A stretch of DNA of 63,972 nucleotides, filler included, from Craspedostauros australis (Eukaryota), in assembly GCA_030167865.1 (NCBI GenBank). It is 6 parts of 6 records of this genome, joined end to end, with 100 filler letters (N's around TTAATTAATTAA, not from the genome) between each part and the next. Parts side by side here need not be neighbours in the genome. Positions count along the whole stretch, not along the records: positions 1 to 24,251 come from JALAGF010000196.1; 5 more parts are not named here. The stretch is one strand, 5' to 3'. The notes under the pieces are model-generated. The model was given only the letters and a program-made list of their open reading frames with translations. It ran no database searches and had not been told where the DNA came from. Positions 13,275 through 28,433 of this stretch are shown piece by piece. A program made the translations under genes and the position numbers. Numbering within the stretch: the first letter of the stretch is position 1; every line of letters starts with the position of its first letter.

Positions 13275-16190
13275 CTACGCCAACACTTCGAACCTGCCAT
13301 CCGACTTCTTGATCAGCAACCCGTTGCTTCGCATGTCATCGATCAGAGTTTGGAATTCGCTGATGGAGCATTCCACCCGGTCCGCGACTCGGCGCAGATC
13401 ATCCATGGTGCACATGCCGCCGACTCCGATGATCCTGTGAACATGCTGGATGAAGAGCTTGCGCATCTTGCGGTTGGAAAGGCCTGCAGCGCCTCCGCGG
13501 GATCTGTCCACTATGCCGAACTCGTCGGTGTGCACCTGCTCAACGGAGCATTCCAGAAGCTCCACAACATCCAGCGCGTCCTCTCTTAGCACGAATTCAC
13601 GCAGGCACGCCTTGGCGCGGGCCTGTGACAATCGGATCAACGCCTCCAGCTGCCTGGTGGTGATGGGCACTGTGTCGTACTTGTCTTGAGCACCACCGGG
13701 GTACCGCAGCTTGAGGTAGTATTCCTTCAGCACGGCGGCTGCTTCTGGCGTGAGCTTCGGCTTGCAATACTCCCTCGCGTACGAGATGTATTCGCGGACC
13801 AAACTGGCCGGCAGCGGTTCGTTGAAGCTGGACACCCACGCCAAGCGCTTGCCCAAAGGTACTCGATTTGCGTGCCTACCCACCGTTCTCTGTCTGCCAC
13901 TCCCACCATTGGCATTGCCATCGCCACGTTCCTGCTGCTCCTGCTGTTGCTGCGCAATCTGATCTTGACGTTGCTGTTCAAGTTCCATCATGAGGTTGTT
14001 CGTGCTCGCGGCGACGTTGCTGCGGCCGTTGCGGTACAAGTTCATAATATTGCTCGAAACCAACCGATCCTGTTCCTTATCTGCTCGGTCACGCAATATG
14101 AACACCAGATCGAAACGTGAGAGGATTGGGCGTGCCATGTTCAGATTCTCCGCCACTGTCTTGCTCAGACTGTAGCTGCCGTGCTTGGGATTGGCAGCAG
14201 CGACGATGCTGCAACGCGCAGGCAACGAAGCCACTGCTCCCGCCTTCGCGATTGAGACCTGCTGCTGCTCCATAGCCTCGAGCAACCCGTCCAGATTCTT
14301 GCACTTGTCCAGTTCGTCGATACATGCCACGCCTTGATCGGCCAGCACCAAGGCTCCCGCTTCTATTCCGGTTTCTCCACCCTCTTCCTTCGTCAGCGTC
14401 ACGGTGAGACCTGTCGTTGACGCCGTCGTCCCTCCAACGTACACACTGCGCGCTGCCAATTGCGTCGCGGCAAGCAGCATCTGACTCTTCCCCATACCTG
14501 GATCGCCCACGATGAGGATATGGGAATTGCTTCTGATGGAGTTGCCGCGATCGAAGGATTGCGATGAAGGCGGGGTGCCACCAAGCAGACACAGCAATAT
14601 CCCTGCCTTGACCTCGTGATGACCAATGATGGAAGGGCACAAGGACCGCACCAGCAAGTCGAAGGGGAATGCCCGGCGCTCCACCAAGCTGAAGCATCGG
14701 TGATCTGCGTGGCACAGCTGCGTTATGTTCTGCATTTGTTGCTTCGTGAAAAGGATCTGCTTGCCCTCCTCGCTGCTTGAGTGGCCTGGGCGGTTGCTTT
14801 CTGACGTTGTCGTGATGGAGTGCGCTTGCAGGAAGAGCTTGTAAGTGCTGGTTTCCATGGCGCGCTTTCCTGCCCTCCCAGCAGCCAAGGCTGTGTTGAC
14901 GGCATCGACGTAGCATGCCAGCAGTATTGTGTCACCAGGCCGGCAGGCATCGATGAGGTCATCCTTGATCTCCACTTCGATCTGCCTTGGTGTCCTACCT
15001 GCATGCATCGTGCTTTCCTCCTGCACTTCCTGCAACCGCAGCTCCTGCACGTTGGTGTACCGTGCTGTGCTTCTTTGCAATGTGAAGGTCCTGGATCTGC
15101 ATTCCGGCCCCGTACATTTGGTGGGGAATGAAAACCGGCCCTGATGGAATGCATGCGTCGTGACTTCCCCGCACTTGCAGCATGTGAAGTCCGCCGTCAC
15201 CACACGCAGGCGCTTGTGACGTGCCTTGACCACGTGCCCCTTCACGGAGATGAACTTTTTGAGCAACCCTGTTTTGATGTCCGCCATCTTTAGCGGCGGA
15301 GTGACCCTCAGCAGCCGGATGGTGAGGCGCGATGAATCCAGGTACCGTTCCAGCCGTGCCAGGCTGGCTGTGTCAGGTTGTGTTGACGGGGGCTGTATGT
15401 CTCTCCACACCGACACGATCGCCAGTGCCATCGAAACGTTGAGCACAGGAATGGCATCAATCGGGAGATGATGCTGCAAGCAATTAGAGAGTACGCAAAT
15501 CATGCGGGGGCATTTGGTGTTGGAATGTCGAGATGTTCACACCGCGACAATGGAGCGAGTATTCGCAGATGATACGTGTGCAGAGCAGAAGAGTTGATGA
15601 GAAACAGCGTCAGTCTGCGTGCTTCAATGATCGCCGCGACGCAATCAAATCTCACCTTTTCAAGAGCAAAGAGACGCACTTGTAGCAGTGTTTGCAAGAC
15701 GCACCAGAAAGGCCCCGAAGGAAAGGTTGCGCCTCTGCTCATCGGAGGCTTGCCCTTTGAACTCGAAGTGATCTATCTCGGCCATGATCTCCCCGTACTG
15801 CACCTGGAAGATGCGCCTGCCGCCACGCAGACGCACGATGTCGAACGACCCATCCTCGTTGCGGGTTGGGATGAAGAACCGCGCAAAGGCCTTGAGGCAG
15901 CTCTGTCGGAAATCCTTGACGTACGACATCTTGTCGTGATCGAGCCGCAGTTGGAAGTCTTCGCTCATCTGAAAATTCTCTTGCAGGACCTTCTTGAGGA
16001 AGTGAAGGAAGAAGTTGTGCAGCCGCAGAATGTGGCCGTAAGTACGCTTGCTGGAGAGCACCGGCCTGTCCTTCGATTCAGCCTGCGAAGCGACCGTGAC
16101 ATCCAGCATCTCTCTCGTTTGCACATCCCACAGGCGCTGCAGATCCGCGCGCTGGATGGGGTCAAAATCCCTCAATCCGTCTGAATTCAT
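13275..16190 (-). CDS. MCM8: DNA helicase MCM8; exons 16190-15705, 15473-13275
   Basis: Zn finger CCKC...CTGPEC, Walker A GDPGMGKSQML (MCM8-type), GLTVTL, EAGALVLADQG, Walker B IDELDK, arginine finger SRFD, sensor II PITTRQLEALIRL. Phase-0 intron CTG|GTGCGT...ttgcag|CAT. Confidence 0.88.
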
Positions 16191-16193
16191 CCT

Positions 16194-16277
16194 GTGCTTG
16201 TGGAGGTGCTTGTGAAGGTGCTTGTGGAAGTGCTTGTGGAAGTGCTTGTGAAGGTGCTTGTGGAAGTGCTTGTGGAA
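16194..16277. repeat. 12-bp tandem repeat, 7 copies (GTGCTTGTGGAA/GTGCTTGTGAAG), abutting the MCM8 start codon
   Basis: Units counted directly: GGAG, GAAG, GGAA, GGAA, GAAG, GGAA, GGAA endings, forming a 36-bp higher-order duplication. Confidence 0.95.
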
Positions 16278-17094
16278 GCGTCAAGCGATAGACACATGCG
16301 ATGGCTTTCCAGATGTTACTGTTGTTGGTGGTACTATTCTTGATGCCGATGTTGTGCGTAATTGTATGTCCTCGTCTGTGCAGGTGTGGTGTCTCCAACA
16401 TTGCCATTGTCGGTCTTCTTGTGTTGGTTTCTTGTGTTCGCGATGTTGGTGATCTTTGTTGGCCTCGACACCTCATCACATCTCCATTTGTGGCGATCAA
16501 ACTTGCCACCATTTCAGCGAATGACTACTGCGACTAAAAACATCATGCGATCCAATCACAATCGTCCCTTCGGGCACCCTCCAGCACACCATCTGTTCCG
16601 TGCTCGTTTGGGCGCTTGTGCGTTGTCTTCGCCACGTCGCTCCTTGTCAGGAATTGTTCCGCGGAGTACTCGCGCTCTGCACCGCCGTGTTCTTCGCGGA
16701 GGAAAAGGACAATTCCGCGTGCCGAATTCACAAAGGAACGCCAAGAGAAACATCAAACAGGTCAGCATTTGGTCCGCTGCGGTAGCGCTCGACGCAAACG
16801 GTACACACACACACACACACGCCAACAAAGGGCGAGGGAACAGACTCCCAGGAGAGGAACAAAGCAGTCAACACAACCTCAACACACAGAGAGCATCTCA
16901 GGAGGACGACGAGCGAAAGCACACACACACACACACGCATACACTCATTAATTCATTCGTCCCCTCCTTCGTTCTTGTGTTTGGCCAGTCAACCATCACA
17001 AACACTTCAAGCGACACAACTCCGTACACACAAAGCGCGACCAGCTCTCCTCTCTGCCACTCTCTTCCCTGTCTCTTTTGAAGCAATTGCGACA

Positions 17095-19277: not shown

Positions 19278-19845
19278 AGTTGCAGTCGCAGGAGTGCTGC
19301 GTACTGAAGGAGGTATTACGTGCATGTGGCGGTTGTAATACAGCGCAACAATACCCCATAGCAGCGACGTGACATAGAGCGAGCGAGGAGCGCGACGAGT
19401 GAAAATGAATACTCTACGCCGCCTGCGCCTTACCTCCTCCATCAGAATCATGGAAGTCGATGCCCATGATCCGATTGTCAGTGCAATACATGAAATCAGG
19501 CATTTTTGAATCAAACCAACAAACACACGCACAAGCAACCAACCAACCAGTTGGTGTCAACCCGGTTGCGAGCCAAGCGACAATTCGCACGAAGAAGAAT
19601 CAAACAATCATGCACAATAATGTTAGAGCGCATTCGAATACGAGTAGAATAACTTATTGATAAAGTATGGTACTCGACAAACATGATCACAGAGACATAC
19701 GCAAACAGCGTGCGAACATCAAACATTACGAGCGCACACTCCACCAAACAAGTGTCTTGAAATGAGCTGTTCTACTGCTTTATTCAGAGCAATTCAGAGT
19801 AGAGTCGAGTAGACTATGGCCTTTCGCAACTCTCGTATTTGTTTC

Positions 19846-22440
19846 TTAGAGGTCCTGCTCCTGCTCCTGCTCTTTCGTTGATTCTTCATCATCCAGGTTG
19901 GTCTCCTCATTGTCTCCGCTGGCGTTGGCATCTTCTTCCTCCTCTGACATTTCCGGCCATTCGTGTTCGTGCAACACCTCCGCACCGTACTTGTTCTCCA
20001 GATTGATCCAAAGCTTCTCCTTCTTGTTCCTGTACTTCCACACCAAGTACCGGGCATTGTTCAAATCACCGTCGGAGATGGAACCCGGAATGACGTGTTT
20101 GTAGTAAGCCAGCAACCGTCTCGTGTCGCGCTCGAACACCCTCTCCTCCCAGTACGACTTGATGAGGAAGCCTCCAAAGAATGCGACGGCCAAGAATACG
20201 CCGATGTACCACTGCAACGCAGAATTGCGCGCCGTTTTGACTGCTTGGACCACCGATTCGCTGCAATACGTGAATGTATGATATCCATGGCGTTGGGTGG
20301 ACGCACGAGTATGGAGAGTGCCGTGATTTATGGTGAGAGTGCATGCATTTTGGGTATCGTCGAATAACAACATCAATGCATGGTGACAAAAGGAATAACA
20401 AATCCATCATTAGTACGGCACAGAACAGTACAGAATCGGACAGCGCAGCGCAGCACAACACAAACGCCACATGGCACCCCGCCCCCACGGAACGTACCGT
20501 TCTCCGACCAAGGCATGGGAGATCTGACCAGTCGATCCCATCGTGAGTTCCAATGCCACGCGCTCGCAGGCGATCTTATTCTCGTCCTTGTCCTTCTGCA
20601 CGAGCGGTGACATGACATCGCCAACCGTCTGCCATTCCCCATCGCGCGTGAGCTTCTGCAGGATTTGCACGCGCAGGTTCAGCGCAGCCTCTTCACGTTT
20701 CGGGATGTGCTTGGAACCTTCGTTGGCCTTGATGGCCTTGAGCAGAGCCTCCTCGTTGAGGTCGAGCTTACCGTCGCGGTAGACGGCGCATTCGGCCGCA
20801 TTGAGATCGATCGCGTACGGACCAGCTGGCACGCGTCGATCGAAGTCGAAGATAGTCTTGACCGGTTGCCACTTGTCCGAATTGCCTCCGTGGTAGTTGA
20901 TCTTCACGCCCAAAGCAACGGGCGCGACGTTCTGCACCTTGATGCTGAGCTGCGCCTTCGGCTTCTTGCCTTGCATTGTCACCGTCCTGTAGATTCTGCC
21001 ATGACTGACGCCTCCGAGGATGGATGCACCGAGGCTGATGCATTCAATCTTCGTCGAGAAGGCGAGCAGCTTCTCCCAATCCTCCAACGTCAGCTGCAGC
21101 TTGGACCACTTGTCTTTGATCGCCTTTTGCTCGGCGACGGTGCCGTACGTGATGAATCCAACGGGGTTGTCTGCCTCCGGGAAGAGCGTGTCGAGGTTCT
21201 CGTACACCTCGCTGATGCACTGCTCTATTCTGGACATGGGGTCCTCCGTCCTGTACGAGACTGTGGTGAGCACGTTGTAGTTTCCGTACACGCAGGAGAG
21301 GTTGTCGGGTTGCGGCGAGGATATTTGAATGGCAGTGCACTCCGCGGTGTCCTTGGTGACTCCCGCTAGCACAAGAATGACCTCCTCGTTGAACTGCGCG
21401 TCGGGATTCTTGACGAGATCCCGTTGGTAGGCCTTGTGCATGGCCTGCATGACCTGATTGAGATGCTCCAAGAGGTTGTTTGCCTTCGATTCCGTTCCAG
21501 GCAGCAAGGCACCGGCCAGAGCGCAGGTGCTGCGTTGGAAGACGACGCCCGTACCATCAGTGGCCTCGATCAGGGCCTCGACGCAGGCATCATGGCAGTA
21601 CGCAGCAGGAACGGGGATTGCGCACGGGTAATCGACGAAGGCTTCCTCCTCCAGGCCGATCTTGGTCTGCTTCGCCACGTGGTACTGTGCCTGATTGAGG
21701 ACAAGCTGCAGGGACTCCTCCGGGAACATGGAAAGGGCCTTCTTGGATTCATTGAGGCGGACCTTCGTGACGACACGGTCGTAATCATCACCCTGAGGGG
21801 TGGAACCATCCAGGGTCCCGTTGGACATGGTCACGCCGACGGACAGGCTGGATTCCTCGGCGATGACGGGCGTGATGGAGTCGTCCTCCTTGACCTTGCT
21901 GCGAAGGTACGCCGGTGCATCCGACAGACGCCGCAGTCCGATCCATCGCTGCGGATCTTCGATCGTCACCGTGCCTTTCTCGCCGCTCTTGCCCAAGGTA
22001 TCCTTCTGCACGTCGCTGTAGGTCTTCGTCTTGGACAGCCACTTGCGCAGGGTCTTGTGCGATGCCTCGGATGCCTTCATCACGACGCTCGACTTCATCT
22101 TGCCGATCAGTTCCACGCGCGGCTGATTCGCGGGATCCTCCGGTTTGGGCGGAAAGTACGCCACGCAGGGCTCCGATCCGTACAGATCCACCCCCACGAG
22201 CGGGTACTTGGACAGGTCGCGGGCCTGCTTCAGCGACAGGTTCTGCTGCTTATCCACGAGGTCGGCACCCAACGCTGCGGCGGACGGAGGCGGGGCGGAG
22301 CCGAAGGCGCTGCTGGCCTGCGGTGGTGGGGTGGGCTGGACGGGCTGTCCCACGGCATTGGCCTGATGGGCCATCACGAGGCCGCCTCCCATGGCACCGG
22401 CTCCGGCGCCGCCGAGTCCTCCTGCTGTTGCTAACGACAT
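19846..22440 (-). CDS. Degenerate Hsp70-like protein with a transmembrane helix and small C-terminal 'KYG' domain; exons 22440-20498, 20260-19846
   Basis: Hsp70-ordered degenerate motifs VGVDLYG, IPVPAAY, RSTCALAG, ECISLGASILG, QNVAPVALGV. Phase-2 intron CG|GTACGT...ttgcag|C joins to RESVVQAVK..., then TM WYIGVFLAVAFFGGFLI, then RLLAYYK...KYRNKKEKLWINLENKYG. Confidence 0.75.
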
Positions 22441-22900: not shown

Positions 22901-23539
22901 CTAATCTCGTTGCGATCCTTGCTGCTGTTTGGAGCGTCGCGATCGCTTCTTGCGTTCACGTCGTGCCGATGATGAACGCTCCCGAATGACTTCCGGCTCG
23001 CCTCTCTCTGCGTGCTGGTTGTAACTCTCATCGAAGTCGTCGTAACCGTAACCGTATCCGTCGCCGATGTACGACTGCTCTTTACGTACCAACGACACCT
23101 CGCGCAGGAACGTCTGGAACTCTCGATCTTCGAGCCTGGACTGTCCCACGTGCACAAAGTCGACAGAGTACTTCTTCGCCGCCTTGCAAATCTCGCATGC
23201 GGCAGACGCGCACTTGTGGACATCGGTGTTGCCATCGTCGTCCGTGCTCCTGTTGTTGTTGTTTTCCTCCGTGAGCGCCGATTCCACAATTTCCGCATCG
23301 TTCATGATGACATCACGTGCCGATTCGTTGTCGGTGGAGTCGTCCTCATCCGTCTCCTCCTTCACCTCCTTCACGACGACGCCATCTTCCAGGTCCCTGT
23401 CTTGTATGGCCGCCCGTGATTGCGCCGCCAGCTTGTCCGCCTTCTGCGCCCTGGCTCTCTTTACCAATTGCGCAGCATACCAGACCAAAAGCACTGCTGC
23501 GAGGAATGATCCGATCAGTGCGATCGCTCCTGCCACCAT
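22901..23539 (-). CDS. Hypothetical single-pass membrane protein with a VHxCxSxxCxxC motif
   Basis: 212-aa ORF with N-terminal hydrophobic helix, acidic middle and VHKCASAACEICK. Coding-like codon usage. Confidence 0.65.
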   Translation of the reverse strand: MVAGAIALIGSFLAAVLLVWYAAQLVKRARAQKADKLAAQSRAAIQDRDLEDGVVVKEVKEETDEDDSTDNESARDVIMNDAEIVESALTEENNNNRSTDDDGNTDVHKCASAACEICKAAKKYSVDFVHVGQSRLEDREFQTFLREVSLVRKEQSYIGDGYGYGYDDFDESYNQHAERGEPEVIRERSSSARRERKKRSRRSKQQQGSQRD

Positions 23540-24251
23540 CTTCGATGTTGCCTATCGTGTGCTTCCTGAGGGTGCGAGAGTGGAGGTGAGTTATTCGTTG
23601 CTTTGGATGTGGTGTCTTGTTTGTGTTCTTCAGAGTCGCCGATTATTTTGGGATTTGCAATCAGGATGGGGATGAACAATGAACGTTAAGAATGGAGAGG
23701 ATGACGCGAGATCTCGCCGATGCCGTAACTCCTCTCTCTTCTGTTCCGTTGAGCAACACGATCGTTTCTCATTCGGTTTTGGCGGAGATGGTTGCTGTCG
23801 CTTCCTTTTCTCCTGTTTTGTGATGTGCAGAACGGTCGCGGAGAATCCCCAACAGTTATACGACCTCCGCTTTCTGTAAACATCAGCGATCGGAGCCGTC
23901 ACGCGGACTTCCGAAGCGACGCTTCACACATGTATTATGTATGTCATTTATTCGGTACGTCCAACGTCCGCTGATAGGCTCTTCAAACATTTCATTCGAT
24001 TCCTTGTGCTGTCCGTGTTGGTCTTTGGTTGTTCGAGATTGGATGGACATTTGAGCACAAACACAGAAAATATCATTTTCCACATGACAAATGACCGCGG
24101 AGATCGTCACAAGCAAAAGATGTGATGATCGGGAGACGATACGGGATGTGTTGTGTGTGTGATGATGTTATTGTGATTATCTCCGACCGTGCAGAGGCTG
24201 TGAACATGGGATTTGCTGCTGCACCGTCTGTCATGGGACCGTATACCAACA

Positions 24252-24351: not shown

Positions 24352-24810
24352 ATCTCGTTTTCCTCTCCAACCTTCAACCAAAACAATCTCATAAAAACAA
24401 CAATCTTACAAAACTCAAGCTTTACAACCACCAAATCAACTCAAAACACATTCTCAATCGTCTCATCTACGTTCGTGGTCACACTACGTTTAACCGNGCT
24501 GACGTTGGCAGTTTCACTTCCCCTTTTGACCTGCCAAAGTCCGACACTGGAAGGCAAAGCCGGACACAACCGGACTTCATTTGCCCTCTATTCTCGCTAA
24601 CATCAACACCTGCCCAAAACAACACGATGCTGAGCGATCGAGTTCGAGCAAAGATACGAATCTTGAACGTGACATGAAATCGCACGATCGCAAGAGACGA
24701 GGAAAGAGAAAGAAGAAACAAGTCACAAAAGACCGAGGTGCACAACAACATCGACATTAACATCAACATCGAGATCCGTATCACAAGACCAACATCAAGA
24801 AAGCATCACC

Positions 24811-26553
24811 ATGAACGCAGTTGCAGCATCCTCCCTTCGATCCGTGTCAAGGACCCTCGCGTCTTCCGGCGCCGCCAAGCGATCCTTCGCGGCCGCAGCT
24901 GGCAGCGAGAACTTGGTCAAGACCGCCCTCAATGACCTGCACAGAGAACTTGGCGGTGAAATGGTGCCATTCGCTGGATACGAGCTTCCAGTCCTCTACA
25001 AGGGAGACAATGGCGGCGTCATGAACGAGCATCTCTGGTGCCGCGAGGAAGGCAAGGCGGCCATGTTTGATGTCTCGCACATGGGGCAGGTGAGTATCTT
25101 CGCGACGGACTGGACACACTGGACGAACTAGTTGGGCGATCGCCTTTTGCAGGACTGTTGGATGTGCGTGGGTGATTCTATTTTAGCAAGGATCATTCTC
25201 CTCGTACGTTGCGTCATATTCCGTTGCACAATCCTCGTGCTCACCCGTTTTCATGCACCTTCTTCCTCGTACAATTCGCCAATCGCACGAATATCCAACC
25301 CATTCTTCGTGCGTATGTGTGTGTACTCCATGACAGATTCGCTGGCACGGAAAGGACCGCGTCGCATTTTTGGAAAAGGTCGTCGTGGGTGACATTGCCG
25401 GCCTCACGCCAGGCAGCGGTCTGCTCTCCTTGGTCACCAACGAAAAGGGTGGAATCCTGGATGACACCGTCATCACCAACGCCGGTGACTTTGTTTACAT
25501 GGTCGTCAACGGTGCCACCAAGTTCGGTGACATGAAGCATTTCCAGGAGCAGCTGGATCAGTTCGATGGCGACGTCACCATGGAGTACCTCGAGGATACG
25601 ATGCAGTTGCTTGCGATCCAGGGACCTGGTGCTGCCGCGGCCATCGCCAAGATCCTGCCGGAGGGATTCGATTTGACCAACATGGCCTTCATGACAGGAA
25701 CGGACACCACCTTGGATGGTGTGGAAGGGTGCCGAATCACGCGGTAAGTCGATTGCTTCACACCGATTTGTTTTGTCATGTCAATTGCCGTTGTTGTTGT
25801 TGTTGTTGTTGTTGTTGAGTGGAAGTCTGCCGCTGGTTGAGGCGCAACACCTCACAACCAACACAAGCCAGTCCGTGGGAAGACGAACAAGCACTGACCA
25901 AAATACCATCGCCTCCCATGCACGATCACATTCTGTGCCTTTCCCATCCACCATACTCGCACGCCAAACCTGACATGACCGAAAGATGCGGCTACACCGG
26001 AGAGGATGGATTCGAAATCGCCATGCCAGAGGCAAGCGCGAACTCCATCGCCTCCAAATTGCTGGAGGATCCAGCTGTCAACCCAACAGGTCTCGGTGCC
26101 CGTGATTCGTTGCGACTCGAAGCTGGTTTGTGCTTGTACGGCAACGATCTGAACGAGGAGACCAATCCAATCGAAGGTGCTCTGGGATGGACCTTGGGCG
26201 GAAAGGGAGGCAGACGCCGCACCGAGCAGGGCTTCCTGGGAGCAGAGACCTTTCTGACCCCCGAGGGCAAGTTCCGAAAGCAATCGCGCAAGCGTGTTGG
26301 CATCTTCGGCATGAAAGCGCCCGCCAGAGATCACACGGAGATCTACGACGCCACCGGCGAGAATCTGATCGGAGAAATCACATCCGGAACCTATTCGCCG
26401 TGCCTCAAGGCGCCCATCGCCATGGGATACGTGTCGAGCGCAAATGCCAAGGCTGGTACAGAAGTCATGCTCAAGATCCGAAACAAGATGCAGAAGGCCG
26501 CCGTCACCAAGATGCCATTCGTCGAATCCAGATACTACCGTGTCCCAGAGTAA
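24811..26553 (+). CDS. gcvT: Mitochondrial aminomethyltransferase (glycine cleavage system T protein); exons 24811-25089, 25337-25743, 25986-26553
   Basis: Mitochondrial presequence. Motifs MVPFAGYELPVLY, FDVSHMGQ, GGILDD, LLAIQGP, ITRCGYTGEDGFEI, GLGARDSLRLEAGLCLYG, ITSGTYSP, IAMGYV, KMPFV. Introns in phase 0 and phase 2. Confidence 0.96.
25790..25816. repeat. (GTT)n microsatellite in gcvT intron 2
   Basis: About 9 GTT units read directly. Confidence 0.85.
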
Positions 26554-26751: not shown

Positions 26752-27879
26752 TTACAAGTACTTTTGTATTGCGTTGTATGCCGCCAGCTGGCGTTTGACA
26801 TCGCGGTATTGCGACGAACCTGCATGTCTCCTCTCGCATTGATCACCCACAGGACCAGTCGCTCCGTTCGCCGACGCAACGTAGGTTCCAGAAGCGTACT
26901 GATCGTATCCGTTGATGCCCAGAATAGCGTCGACGTAGCGCTGCGCACCGGTTGGCAGGTCGTGCATGAAGCCAATGAACCTGAAAAACTTCATGATTGG
27001 CTGGCCTGCCATGCGAACGAATATCGGCAAGGCTTTGTGAGATTGAGCGGCCGTGCCTGTCGTCCCGCCTGGGCTGACGGTCAGCACGACGTAATCTGGA
27101 TTCCGCCTGGCCCACTCCATGAAGTACAAAGCGGCGATGCCCTTGACATAACCGTAGTGTGCGACGACATCAAGCCTCGTGACGTTGGCACCGGTGATGA
27201 ATGCCTGCATACCGGCCTCATCCTTGGGCATCTTCGGTGCGGCGAGGGCAATGATGGGGATTCCGCGGGCTGCTTCCGACCCCGAGAACATGATGCGAGA
27301 TACACCAGGCTTGAGCCGTCCAGCAGCTTCCAACGCATTCAAGAGGTGCAGATTTCCAATCAGATTTATTTGGATTTGATCCACGATATGACACACTCCT
27401 CCTGCATTCAGAATGACGCCATCAACTCGTTCGCCCCAACTTAGTGCTGACATGGCGTTTGCAACGAGCGTTGCCTTGTCGTCTTCTGCATCGAATTTCA
27501 TGAAAGCCAGCTTGGAGGCGGCGATTCCATGTTGCATGACGAGCGCGTTTATCGCAGCCATAGCCTTGTGCTCGTTGCGGCATGCCATGTACACCTTCTT
27601 CGTCTCCGGCATCGCAGCAAGCTGACGCGTTGTTTCAAAGCCAAGCCCAACGTTGGCTCCAGTCACAACGTACACTTTCCCTGCTGCGCCGTTCCAACGG
27701 CGAGTTTGGCCAAACGGGAACCTCCATCCTGACTTCGCCTCGCTGGCTGCTCCAATAGAGCTCGGCATTCCGAGTTGGCCTTCTGACTGTTCCACTGTTG
27801 CGTGCGCAACGCACGTCATCAAGAGCAGCACCAGTGCCAACAGTGGCAACGGCGATTGAAGCCGCCACATGTTGCCCAT
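26752..27879 (-). CDS. Short-chain dehydrogenase/reductase with signal peptide (tandem paralog 1)
   Basis: Signal peptide LPLLALVLLLMTCVAHA, Rossmann VTGANVGLG, ILNAGG, SGSE, catalytic YGYVK, VSPG. Intronless. Confidence 0.9.
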   Translation of the reverse strand: MGNMWRLQSPLPLLALVLLLMTCVAHATVEQSEGQLGMPSSIGAASEAKSGWRFPFGQTRRWNGAAGKVYVVTGANVGLGFETTRQLAAMPETKKVYMACRNEHKAMAAINALVMQHGIAASKLAFMKFDAEDDKATLVANAMSALSWGERVDGVILNAGGVCHIVDQIQINLIGNLHLLNALEAAGRLKPGVSRIMFSGSEAARGIPIIALAAPKMPKDEAGMQAFITGANVTRLDVVAHYGYVKGIAALYFMEWARRNPDYVVLTVSPGGTTGTAAQSHKALPIFVRMAGQPIMKFFRFIGFMHDLPTGAQRYVDAILGINGYDQYASGTYVASANGATGPVGDQCERRHAGSSQYRDVKRQLAAYNAIQKYL

Positions 27880-28433
27880 CGAGCGCTTCAGCTGGATCTT
27901 CGATCTGCTTGTGACCTTGTTGAGGTTTGGTTGGACTGGATTGGATTGGATTGGATTGGATTGTTTGGAAGTGATTCACCACCTGATGCTTGCAACTATG
28001 ATGTCAACAATGACGATGACGATGACGACGAGAAAGGATGCCTTCTCTGACTGACGATGGTCAGTGCAACGCAGATTGTGTGGAAAAGATACGTTTGTGT
28101 CTCTCAGCGGAAGTCGTCTGAAGGGAATCTTTGGTCACAAATTCCTGTTTGGTTGGGCCACTCCAAGTTCGCCAAAATTGTGACGAACACGCCAACATGC
28201 CAACATGCCAACAAAGCTTCAGAAGGAGGCTAGAGATGTACGACTATGACCTGGGTATGAGTACGAGCTGCTTCATAGAATAAGATCTATCTGTGGTCTG
28301 AATCAAGTTTTGTATCACATTCGTACACTAATGATGTTGATGTCCATCTGTGTTTACTCTAATGAGCTTTGACTTCGCAGTCGACTCTCCACCAATGCTG
28401 ATGGGAACGCCATTAACTCAATGCACCCACCAT

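Follow-up and report, generated by a model that had tools for sequence, protein, structure and literature searches.

Few protein machines have been studied as thoroughly as Hsp70. To our knowledge, its relatives are soluble ATP-binding proteins, and all known contacts of Hsp70 and Hsp110 with exchange factors use subdomain IIB of the nucleotide-binding domain (NBD). Subdomain IIB carries adenine contacts in addition to binding the exchange factors. Here we describe a gene on the minus strand, at positions 19846-22440, of a window of DNA from Craspedostauros australis (GenBank assembly GCA_030167865.1; by the window we mean the whole stretch analysed, 63,972 nucleotides including filler, of which positions 1 to 24,251 come from JALAGF010000196.1). 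Its two exons encode a protein of 785 residues, called the window protein below, in which an N-terminal body of the Hsp70 fold is followed by one transmembrane (TM) helix, a helical region that we name the KYG module after its closing residues, and an acidic tail. We consider it probable, at roughly 0.7, that this is a single-pass membrane protein with an Hsp70-derived N-terminal body that has lost subdomain IIB, the lid and the catalytic set of residues, and that it would serve as a nucleotide-independent scaffold or receptor at the surface of the endoplasmic reticulum (ER).

The canonical Hsp70 proteins (DnaK, BiP, Hsc70) share with the window protein the fold and the order of domains (4b9q, 4jn4 and 6asy: Z 26-27, root-mean-square deviation (rmsd) 2.8-3.6, 374-390 residues), and the window protein keeps an equivalent of D8 and strings resembling KRLIGR, VPAYF, EAVAxGAA and DVTPLSLG. 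Unlike them, it has no IIB, no equivalents of K70, E171 and DLGGGT, no lid and no detection by PF00012, and it adds a helix at residues 322-344, an enlarged subdomain IB, a helical insert in the beta part of the substrate-binding domain (SBDbeta) and a membrane anchor. Hsp110, Sse1 and Grp170 are similar in their docked NBD and SBDbeta (Sse1 3d2e_A, Z 26.3; Hsp110 NBD 6gfa, Z 23.5), in the insert within SBDbeta and in not being classical foldases. However, the Hsp110 proteins have IIB, ATP binding, a long helical lid, solubility and a PF00012 match, none of which is found in the window protein; IIB and the extended lid, by which the Hsp110/Grp170 subfamily is recognised, are both missing from it. 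Ssz1 and HSPA14 use the Hsp70 fold as a structural partner instead of an ATP-driven clamp and have a reduced C-terminal part (Z 20.8 for 4gni, 20.2 for 5mb9), but Ssz1 binds ATP (the title of 4gni names ATP and Mg), keeps IIB, is soluble and ribosome-bound, and has neither a TM segment nor a lumenal tail.

In language-model features the nearest clusters are HSPA12A/B-like and bacterial DUF5716/Hsp70 proteins (0.90-0.91), which also have divergent NBDs and non-canonical C-terminal parts, but 45%-100% of the members of those clusters match PF00012, and the link is a lead in feature space and not an alignment. We know of no TM segment, KYG module or xDEL tail in HSPA12A/B-like or DUF5716 proteins. 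The closest layout is that of the yeast proteins Sec20p and Sed4p, mentioned in PMC2140024, with a large cytosolic N-terminal domain, one TM segment and a short lumenal part with a KDEL-type end; they lack an Hsp70 fold, and the likeness lies only in the predicted topology and the logic of retrieval. By analogy, the nearest counterparts in logic would be Hsp110, which is docked and no foldase, and Ssz1, an Hsp70 with a structural role; in layout the nearest would be Sec20p. Compared with all of these, the window protein is a lineage-restricted, membrane-integrated pseudo-Hsp70 that falls outside the family in its sequence profile, IIB, catalytic residues, lid, and solubility with a nucleotide cycle. 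It combines a two-domain Hsp70 body, kept in an ATP-like docked shape without the nucleotide-handling residues, with a membrane anchor in exchange for the lid, and its family shows what the Hsp70 scaffold may offer without its cycle.

An Hsp70 fold without subdomain IIB

An AlphaFold2 model of the window protein was made from the family alignment only, with no templates (predicted local distance difference test (pLDDT) 83.1, predicted template-modelling score 0.84). The exon products were not joined for folding, and the full-length fold was made on a natural orthologue (P0006). Foldseek placed ATP-bound BiP (E 8.9e-14), DnaK-ATP, Ssb-ATP and Sse1 at the top of 202 PDB chains matched at E <= 0.001. 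The VIA alignment to BiP-ATP (6asy_A) covered 386 residues at Z 26.8 and rmsd 3.4, with model residues 71-647 running against BiP 24-512. Chains in the ATP state aligned over about 375-390 residues, compared with about 279 for undocked or ADP-state chains and chains consisting of the NBD only, and this gain of about 100 residues indicates that in the model SBDbeta docks onto the NBD. When 48,161 representative chains were scanned independently of Foldseek, Sse1, the Hsp110 NBD, BiP, Ssb1, Ssz1 and RAC ranked first to sixth (Z 26.3-20.2), followed by BeeR (Z 18.2), MreB (16.6) and then ParM and actins. The orthologue model gave the same picture against DnaK-ATP (Z 26.7, rmsd 2.9, 375 aligned). 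A two-lobed actin-like NBD is therefore joined through a linker to an SBDbeta sandwich, with the topology of Hsp70, and the Hsp70 fold, which a reading of the sequence alone had suspected, was recovered for both the nucleotide-binding and the beta substrate-binding domain in two models at Z 26-27. Membership in the Hsp70 superfamily is clear from the predicted structures.

The Hsp70-like strings on which that suspicion rested (Table 1) are all present in the exon 1 product, in the order in which they had been listed. Comparison by hhalign of 68 family members with 74 DnaK, HscA and HscC sequences gave E 8e-5, with anchors at DnaK 4-18, 139-180, 337-380 and 391-400. In language-model features the ten nearest family-bearing clusters all belong to the Hsp70 clan (10/10; score 0.91), which we take as a weak lead. 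Several observations weigh against a descent from Hsp70. The probability given by hhalign in the comparison above is only 61%, and a first family alignment against DnaK alone gave 17%. PF00012 (HSP70) did not match the window protein at E <= 10 and matched none of 43 family members searched at E <= 1, and phmmer searches of PDB sequences with the protein and searches with the family profile found no Hsp70. The docked arrangement of NBD and SBDbeta in the predicted structure could also be a bias of AlphaFold2. Hsp70 membership is not demonstrable from sequence alone. The only Pfam match of the two exon products at E <= 10 was a sub-threshold one to MTRES1_C (E 0.081), and the 43 members together matched 16 families, each through a single member and none of them HSP70. 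The best PDB profile match, a designed protein (E 0.013), was not useful.

The lack of a significant HSP70 sequence match in Pfam or PDB is what one would expect if the body had arisen by fusion of a different actin-like (ASKHA) domain with an unrelated beta domain, or if the model were misleading, and MreB, ParM and actin do match the NBD at Z 12-18. Nevertheless, we find such an origin barely credible. Chains of the Hsp70 superfamily reach Z 20-26 against 18 or less for other ASKHA proteins, and they alone match the two domains together in their mutual placement. Two independent models agree, and the signatures DLxxxxxxVA, RWIGLRR, VPAxY, QRSxxAL, YG, xCVAxGxxxLG and NVAPVAVG are kept in order with a DnaK-like spacing.

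In Hsp70 and actin, subdomain IIB is inserted where the third strand of domain II passes into its first helix. Secondary structure assigned to the model by DSSP shows domain II strands at 354-361, 365-376, 385-397, 428-432 and 459-462 and helices at 401-419, 435-451 and 467-479, which is the bare beta-beta-beta-alpha-beta-alpha-beta-alpha core of the actin fold. Strand 385-397 is followed by helix 401-419 after 3 residues, whereas in DnaK 83 residues (225-307) separate FEVLATNGD from LVEDLV. VIA alignments to NBD-only chains (Z 22-24) covered about 278 of about 380 residues, leaving about 100 target residues unaligned. On secondary structure and spacing of the model, rather than residue-level superposition, subdomain IIB is absent. 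The sequence-only reading had put the loss at roughly 100 residues; the absence itself stands, and its size is nearer 80. Other motif spacings match DnaK closely, which supports the register: VPAxY lies 25 residues from the EPTAAA-like helix (28 in DnaK), and that helix is 29 residues from the VLVGG-like strand in both proteins. Elsewhere the window protein is longer than DnaK. The EPTAAA-like helix and the DLGGGT-like strand are 50 residues apart instead of 17, a surplus of 33 that holds the helix 322-344, and about 58 further residues lie in IA/IB and about 13 in the linker. One result speaks against the missing IIB, in that hhalign laid a middle stretch of the family (346-397) on DnaK 250-300, within IIB. 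We overruled this placement because residues 346-397 form three long strands in the model and because the hhalign confidences there were near zero. Within the enlarged IB, the block NGTLDGS.P.GDDFDR (residues 207-222, about 21775-21822 on the minus strand) ranks with the best-conserved segments of the family, and L210, D219, D221 and R222 are invariant in the family alignment.

The structural neighbours raise a further possibility, that the protein is a co-chaperone of the Hsp110/Grp170 or Ssz1 type, acting as a nucleotide-exchange factor or a stable J-protein partner that recruits a canonical cytosolic Hsp70 to the ER surface. Sse1/Hsp110 and Ssz1/RAC are among the best or tied-best matches, and the docked SBDbeta with an insert, seen in the model, is known from Hsp110. 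The exchange activity of Hsp110, however, uses its own ATP-bound NBD, including IIB, together with a long lid that embraces Hsp70. Both IIB and the long lid are missing here (3c7n and 3d2e are among the structure matches), and we judge such a role distinctly unlikely.

The residues of the ATP site were mapped through the hhalign anchors and the motif spacing, and were counted over 68 family sequences. DnaK D8 corresponds to D85, which is kept in 68/68 and is the sole catalytic or nucleotide-binding residue retained. G10 is replaced by Y or F (61/68), T11 by G, A or S, and T12 is variable. K70 corresponds to Q164, inside RWIGLRR, the recognisable counterpart of KRLIGR; this position is H, Q or E in 56/68, and the six commonest residues, which account for 66/68, do not include K. 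E171 has become R303 (67/68). DLGGGT reads LAGVTKD, with the Asp of the catalytic position lost and one Gly left, and VGG reads YG. The set that marks a catalytic Hsp70 (D8, K70, E171, D194/T199 and the Thr pair of phosphate loop 1) is therefore reduced to its first member, and the family-wide counts agree with the degenerate ATP site that had been proposed from the single sequence. Taken together with the loss of IIB, these replacements make ATP hydrolysis by the protein very unlikely and ATP binding doubtful, as far as sequence can indicate. D85, R303 and E367 are nearly invariant, which suggests that the old nucleotide cleft is still a constrained site.

An alternative reading is a working, if very divergent, membrane-tethered Hsp70 ATPase with a rebuilt site, in which, for example, helix 322-344 replaces IIB. 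Some ASKHA ATPases function without a subdomain of the size of IIB, the model resembles the ATP-bound state, and beside the invariant D85 the residues G360, T362, D364, E367 and G433, which surround the cleft, are well conserved. Against this, K70 has been replaced by Q, H or E and E171 by an Arg that hardly varies, neither the glycine-rich phosphate-2 loop nor the phosphate-1 Thr pair is left, IIB is absent, and no lid is present that could clamp a client. We therefore hold an active enzyme to be highly unlikely. A point that tells against reading too much into the dead site is that its mapping comes from sequence comparison; R303 or helix 322-344 may fill the cleft.

Membrane anchor, C-terminal ending and possible role

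Structural alignments to lid-bearing chains (4b9q, 5nro, 6asy) stop at DnaK 491-493 or BiP 514-517, ahead of the lid. In the orthologue model the polypeptide continues as a single 54-residue helix (664-717) that contains the TM segment, followed by helices at 727-736 and 741-752 (pLDDT 85-90). Helix 664-717 did not superpose on the helices of the Hsp70 lid (SBDalpha), and the lid is replaced by the TM segment and the KYG module, as had been proposed. The TM segment is the global hydropathy maximum in 9/9 orthologues checked, with N-terminal maxima of at most 1.25. In the window protein the best N-terminal stretch of 19 residues scores 1.11 against 1.93 for the TM segment, and no K or R occurs ahead of residue 64; the hydropathy scan thus agrees with the predicted lack of a signal peptide. 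A median of 102 residues follows the TM segment in 69 members (minimum 82; about 100 in the window protein), which places it well ahead of the last 30-40 residues where the TM segment of a tail-anchored protein lies.

The KYG module has the sequence RDTRRLLAYYKHV..PGS..DGD..ARYLVWKYR..K.KLW..LE.KYG. In an Atlas search it returned only two diatom clusters, with scores of 0.88 and 0.76, and in a word-indexed search among proteins of 75-240 amino acids all 126 of 126 matches were exon 2 pieces of the family (58-88% identity among the matches listed). The module was not found outside the family in Pfam, in the Atlas or among proteins of 75-240 amino acids, longer proteins not having been searched separately. 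A match of the KYG part to a chemosensory protein in the PDB profile search (E 0.43) was judged to be due to chance.

The C-terminal ending was counted in 82 distinct proteins that cover the TM segment and the KYG module, out of 254 family-related proteins. All 82 end in [DE][LF], 80 in [DE]L and two in EF (HDEF and GNEF). The commonest endings are EQDL (16), EPDL (15), EQEL (6), GDEL (5), QDEL (5) and EEEL (4); KEEL (2), KDEL, RDEL and AEEL (1 each) are rarer, and NDEL, TDEL and others also occur. The tail ahead of the ending is variable and of low complexity. This conserved ending had no place in the sequence-only reading and is a new observation. DDEL has been appended as an ER-retention signal to recombinant proteins produced in Phaeodactylum (PMC3229587). 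In human reporter cells (PMC2140024), position -2 prefers E and tolerates D, position -1 may be L or F, and position -3 may be anything except Pro; the same source describes two yeast type II membrane proteins that are retained through a lumenal HDEL. All 82 endings have the acidic residue at -2 and the L or F at -1 of this broader code, which comes from human cells and concerns signals at the extreme C-terminus that face the lumen, and 18 of the 82 have Pro at -3.

The [DE][LF] endings and the cited retrieval literature make a C-terminus in the ER lumen the best reading. This agrees with an N-terminus unlike a signal peptide, with the 660 folded residues that precede the only TM segment, and with the flanking charge, the net positive charge being larger on the N-terminal flank in 64/69 members. 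A larger positive charge on one flank bears on orientation through the charge-difference rule. We regard a cytosolic Hsp70-like part, a lumenal tail and residence in the ER, all predicted from sequence, as moderately probable. The connection between cytosol and an organelle lumen suggested in the sequence-only reading thereby gains a KDEL-like ending conserved in 82/82, while the connection itself is still something that we infer.

Four features of the family count against this topology. The EQDL of the window protein misses the PROSITE pattern [KRHQSA]-[DENQ]-E-L, which only a minority of the 82 members fit strictly (QDEL 5, KEEL 2, KDEL 1, RDEL 1, AEEL 1). Pro stands at -3 in EPDL and EPEL, in 18/82 members. 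The raw number of K plus R is higher on the C-terminal flank of the TM segment in 56/69 members. At 207-209, 55/68 members retain an N-x-[ST] sequon, which could hint that the large domain is lumenal. Each of these would suit a different topology or compartment, in which the Hsp70-like domain lies in a lumen or outside the cell, or the protein is anchored in another organelle membrane, and [DE][LF] is a cytosolic export or binding motif; EQDL and EPDL fit the mammalian KDEL code poorly, and Pro at -3 is inactive there (PMC2140024). We think such an arrangement unlikely, given that the N-terminus does not resemble a signal peptide, that the sole hydrophobic segment comes only after 660 folded residues, that the net flank charge favours a cytosolic N-terminal side in 64/69 members, and that xDEL, KEEL or HDEF closes many members and DDEL closes the one from Parmales.

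Under the preferred reading, a nucleotide-independent scaffold or receptor at the ER surface, the N-terminal body would descend from an Hsp70 whose two-lobed NBD and SBDbeta are held together as in ATP-bound Hsp70 or Hsp110. The body would be locked in this docked form without nucleotide and would sit on the cytosolic side of the ER membrane. The KYG module and the acidic tail would lie in the ER lumen, with the C-terminal [DE][LF] acting as a KDEL-type retrieval signal. Such a permanently docked Hsp70-fold protein might bind a partner or client at the ER surface instead of working as a folding machine. Candidate binding surfaces are the SBDbeta block FDFDRRVPAGPY (residues 531-542), which is the most conserved block of the family, the enlarged IB with its NGTLDGS.P.GDDFDR, and the conserved helical insert IP.RE.AAL.

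The ER of diatoms is continuous with the nuclear envelope and with the outermost membrane of the plastid. A bolder extension, which we put forward only tentatively and think unlikely, is that the protein is a receptor or tether across the ER membrane and represents a new membrane-integrated class of the Hsp70 fold confined to diatoms and Parmales. The lumenal three-helix module would then be rigidly coupled, through one continuous helix, to the nucleotide-free, ATP-like cytosolic body, and information might be passed, or partners held, across the membrane of the ER system enclosing nucleus and complex plastid. If true, the tether would be an invention of this lineage, linked to features of cell biology that only the clade of diatoms and Parmales has.

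Gene structure, relatives and surrounding frames

The coding region begins with an ATG at 22440 and ends with a stop codon at 19846-19848, limits that the sequence-only reading had placed correctly (Table 1). Exon 1 gives 647 residues (P0001, 20500-22440 on the minus strand) and exon 2 gives 137 residues (P0002) after a split codon (CG|C, Arg); the intron opens with its donor GT at 20497 and closes with its acceptor AG at 20261. A 718-nucleotide contig from a run of the same organism (X1; depth 30.6, 0 mismatches) covers 20749-20498 joined to 20260-19795, and the bases that it skips have the ends CT..AC on the plus strand, that is, GT..AG on the strand of the gene. An exact GT-AG deletion has the appearance of a spliced transcript, so that the junction rests on more than the splice signals. 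Run X1 is a public run stored as contigs with coverage limited to 19795-20749, outside which the 5' part of the gene falls, and its RNA nature is only guessed, which counts against taking it as proof of expression. Full-length orthologues, two of which are MMETSP transcripts marked as complete, read ...LVGERESVVQATKSARNS... across the same junction with the same tail, and the window protein and the orthologues have the N-terminus MSLAT..GG in common. With the contig and the orthologue transcripts both carrying the 20498/20260 junction, the TM exon belongs to the same transcript as exon 1, as had been supposed.

Table 1. Features of the gene for the membrane-anchored Hsp70-like protein, in window positions.
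Feature	Position	Strand	Residues	Description and basis
Whole coding region	19846..22440	-	785 codons + stop	Open reading frames, splice signals, same-organism contig, orthologues
Exon 1	20498..22440	-	1-647 + two bases of codon 648	Open frame
Intron	20261..20497	-		237 nucleotides, GT..AG; exactly skipped by one 718-nucleotide contig
Exon 2, coding part	19846..20260	-	648-785 + stop	Transcript extends at least to 19795
N-terminal region	22264..22440	-	1-59	Gly/Ala/Pro-rich; predicted disordered (pLDDT <50); not signal-peptide-like
Hsp70-type NBD	20995..22209	-	78-482	Enlarged IB (about 123-238), without IIB; structure matches, spacing
Extra long helix	21409..21477	-	322-344	Between EPTAAA-like helix and first domain II strand; no Hsp70 counterpart
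IIB branch point	21241..21252	-	397-400	3 residues instead of 83; DSSP, DnaK spacing
Linker and SBDbeta	20500..20991	-	484-647	Docked on NBD in model; in VIA, model 647 = DnaK 491
Three-helix insert in SBDbeta	20677..20799	-	548-588	I579, R582, E583, A586 conserved; DSSP, invariant columns
TM helix LQWYIGVFLAVAFFGGFLIKS	20155..20217	-	663-683 of spliced protein	Kyte-Doolittle 19-residue mean 1.93
KYG module	19960..20154	-		Continuation of TM helix and two short helices; orthologue model, conserved columns
Acidic disordered tail	19849..19959	-		Ends EQDL; orthologue tail pLDDT <50
Hsp70-like strings, first half				GVDLYGSE 83-90; VPAAY 277-281; RSTCAL 303-308; AGVTKDT 359-365; YNVLTTVSY 388-396
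Hsp70-like strings, second half				DPMSRIEQCI 400-409; FITYGT 429-434; ECISLGA 466-472; NVAPVALG 504-511

At E <= 0.001, a word-indexed search returned 141 proteins; the best identity among the matches listed is 63%, and no precomputed Pfam domain was present in the best 120 of these 141 matches. Scanning 1.84 billion cluster representatives exhaustively with HMMER gave 92 at E <= 0.001, 43 of them at E <= 1e-30. The members that carry an organism name are diatoms (Cylindrotheca, Nitzschia, Seminavis, Pseudo-nitzschia, Stephanopyxis, Discostella, Fistulifera, Mayamaea and Epithemia), the sole exceptions being two proteins of Triparma (P0412 and P0413), which belongs to the Parmales, the sister group of diatoms. 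The Triparma protein compared is 30% identical to the window protein over 267 C-terminal residues that span SBDbeta, the TM segment and the KYG module (E 3e-27), and its N-terminal half gave no BLASTP match. The range thus comprises diatoms and Parmales among the named members; most members are unnamed proteins from metagenomes, so that the true range is unsettled. A firefly match in the HMMER scan (P0210, E 9.4e-5) is a six-fold repeat that matches weakly over 70-95 residues, and we do not count it as a family member.

Both Triparma proteins and P0213 have the same layout of SBDbeta, TM segment, KYG module and xDEL ending, the last being DDEL in Triparma and EPEL in P0213. Prokaryotic gene callers split the gene at its intron, and many products of about 650 and about 100-220 amino acids result. 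P0147, P0391 (Epithemia clementina) and P0157 are 1137-1235 amino acids long and match in 6-7 separate stretches, for which read-through introns or real insertions are possible explanations.

Public names of the orthologues are 'hypothetical', 'expressed unknown' or 'transmembrane protein', an annotation that follows from the failure of Pfam to detect the family. Among titles and the beginnings of abstracts, we found no paper on this protein or on the locus tags of named orthologues; proteome tables of diatom organelles might list orthologues. The lack of Pfam matches and of anything relevant in the literature searched agrees with the proposal that this is not a described family. The gene is conserved across diatoms, a group of major marine primary producers, where it is also expressed, and it is present in their sister group; in transformable diatoms that carry an orthologue it would be a tractable target for localisation and knockout.

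The neighbouring genes give no functional hint, as expected in a eukaryote. Directly upstream of the gene, a frame of 216 amino acids (22904-23551, minus strand) has an N-terminal hydrophobic stretch, an acidic middle and no Pfam match. The frame at 26755-27975 (minus strand) has a hydrophobic N-terminus and a weak match to short-chain dehydrogenases (adh_short, E 1.3e-6), and that at 15660-16280 (minus strand) starts with a run of HKHF/HKHL repeats and may be coding or a simple repeat. Two frames on the plus strand, 24673-25128 and 25819-26550, hold 55 positions from the start and 79 from the end of GCV_T as well as GCV_T_C, and correspond to the T protein of glycine cleavage (aminomethyltransferase); the middle of this gene must be encoded by at least one additional exon located between the two frames. 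The frame at 13278-15536 (minus strand) encodes a helicase of the MCM family (PF00493, E 1.4e-75; MCM_OB, MCM_lid, WHD_MCM8) with a winged-helix end of the MCM8 type.

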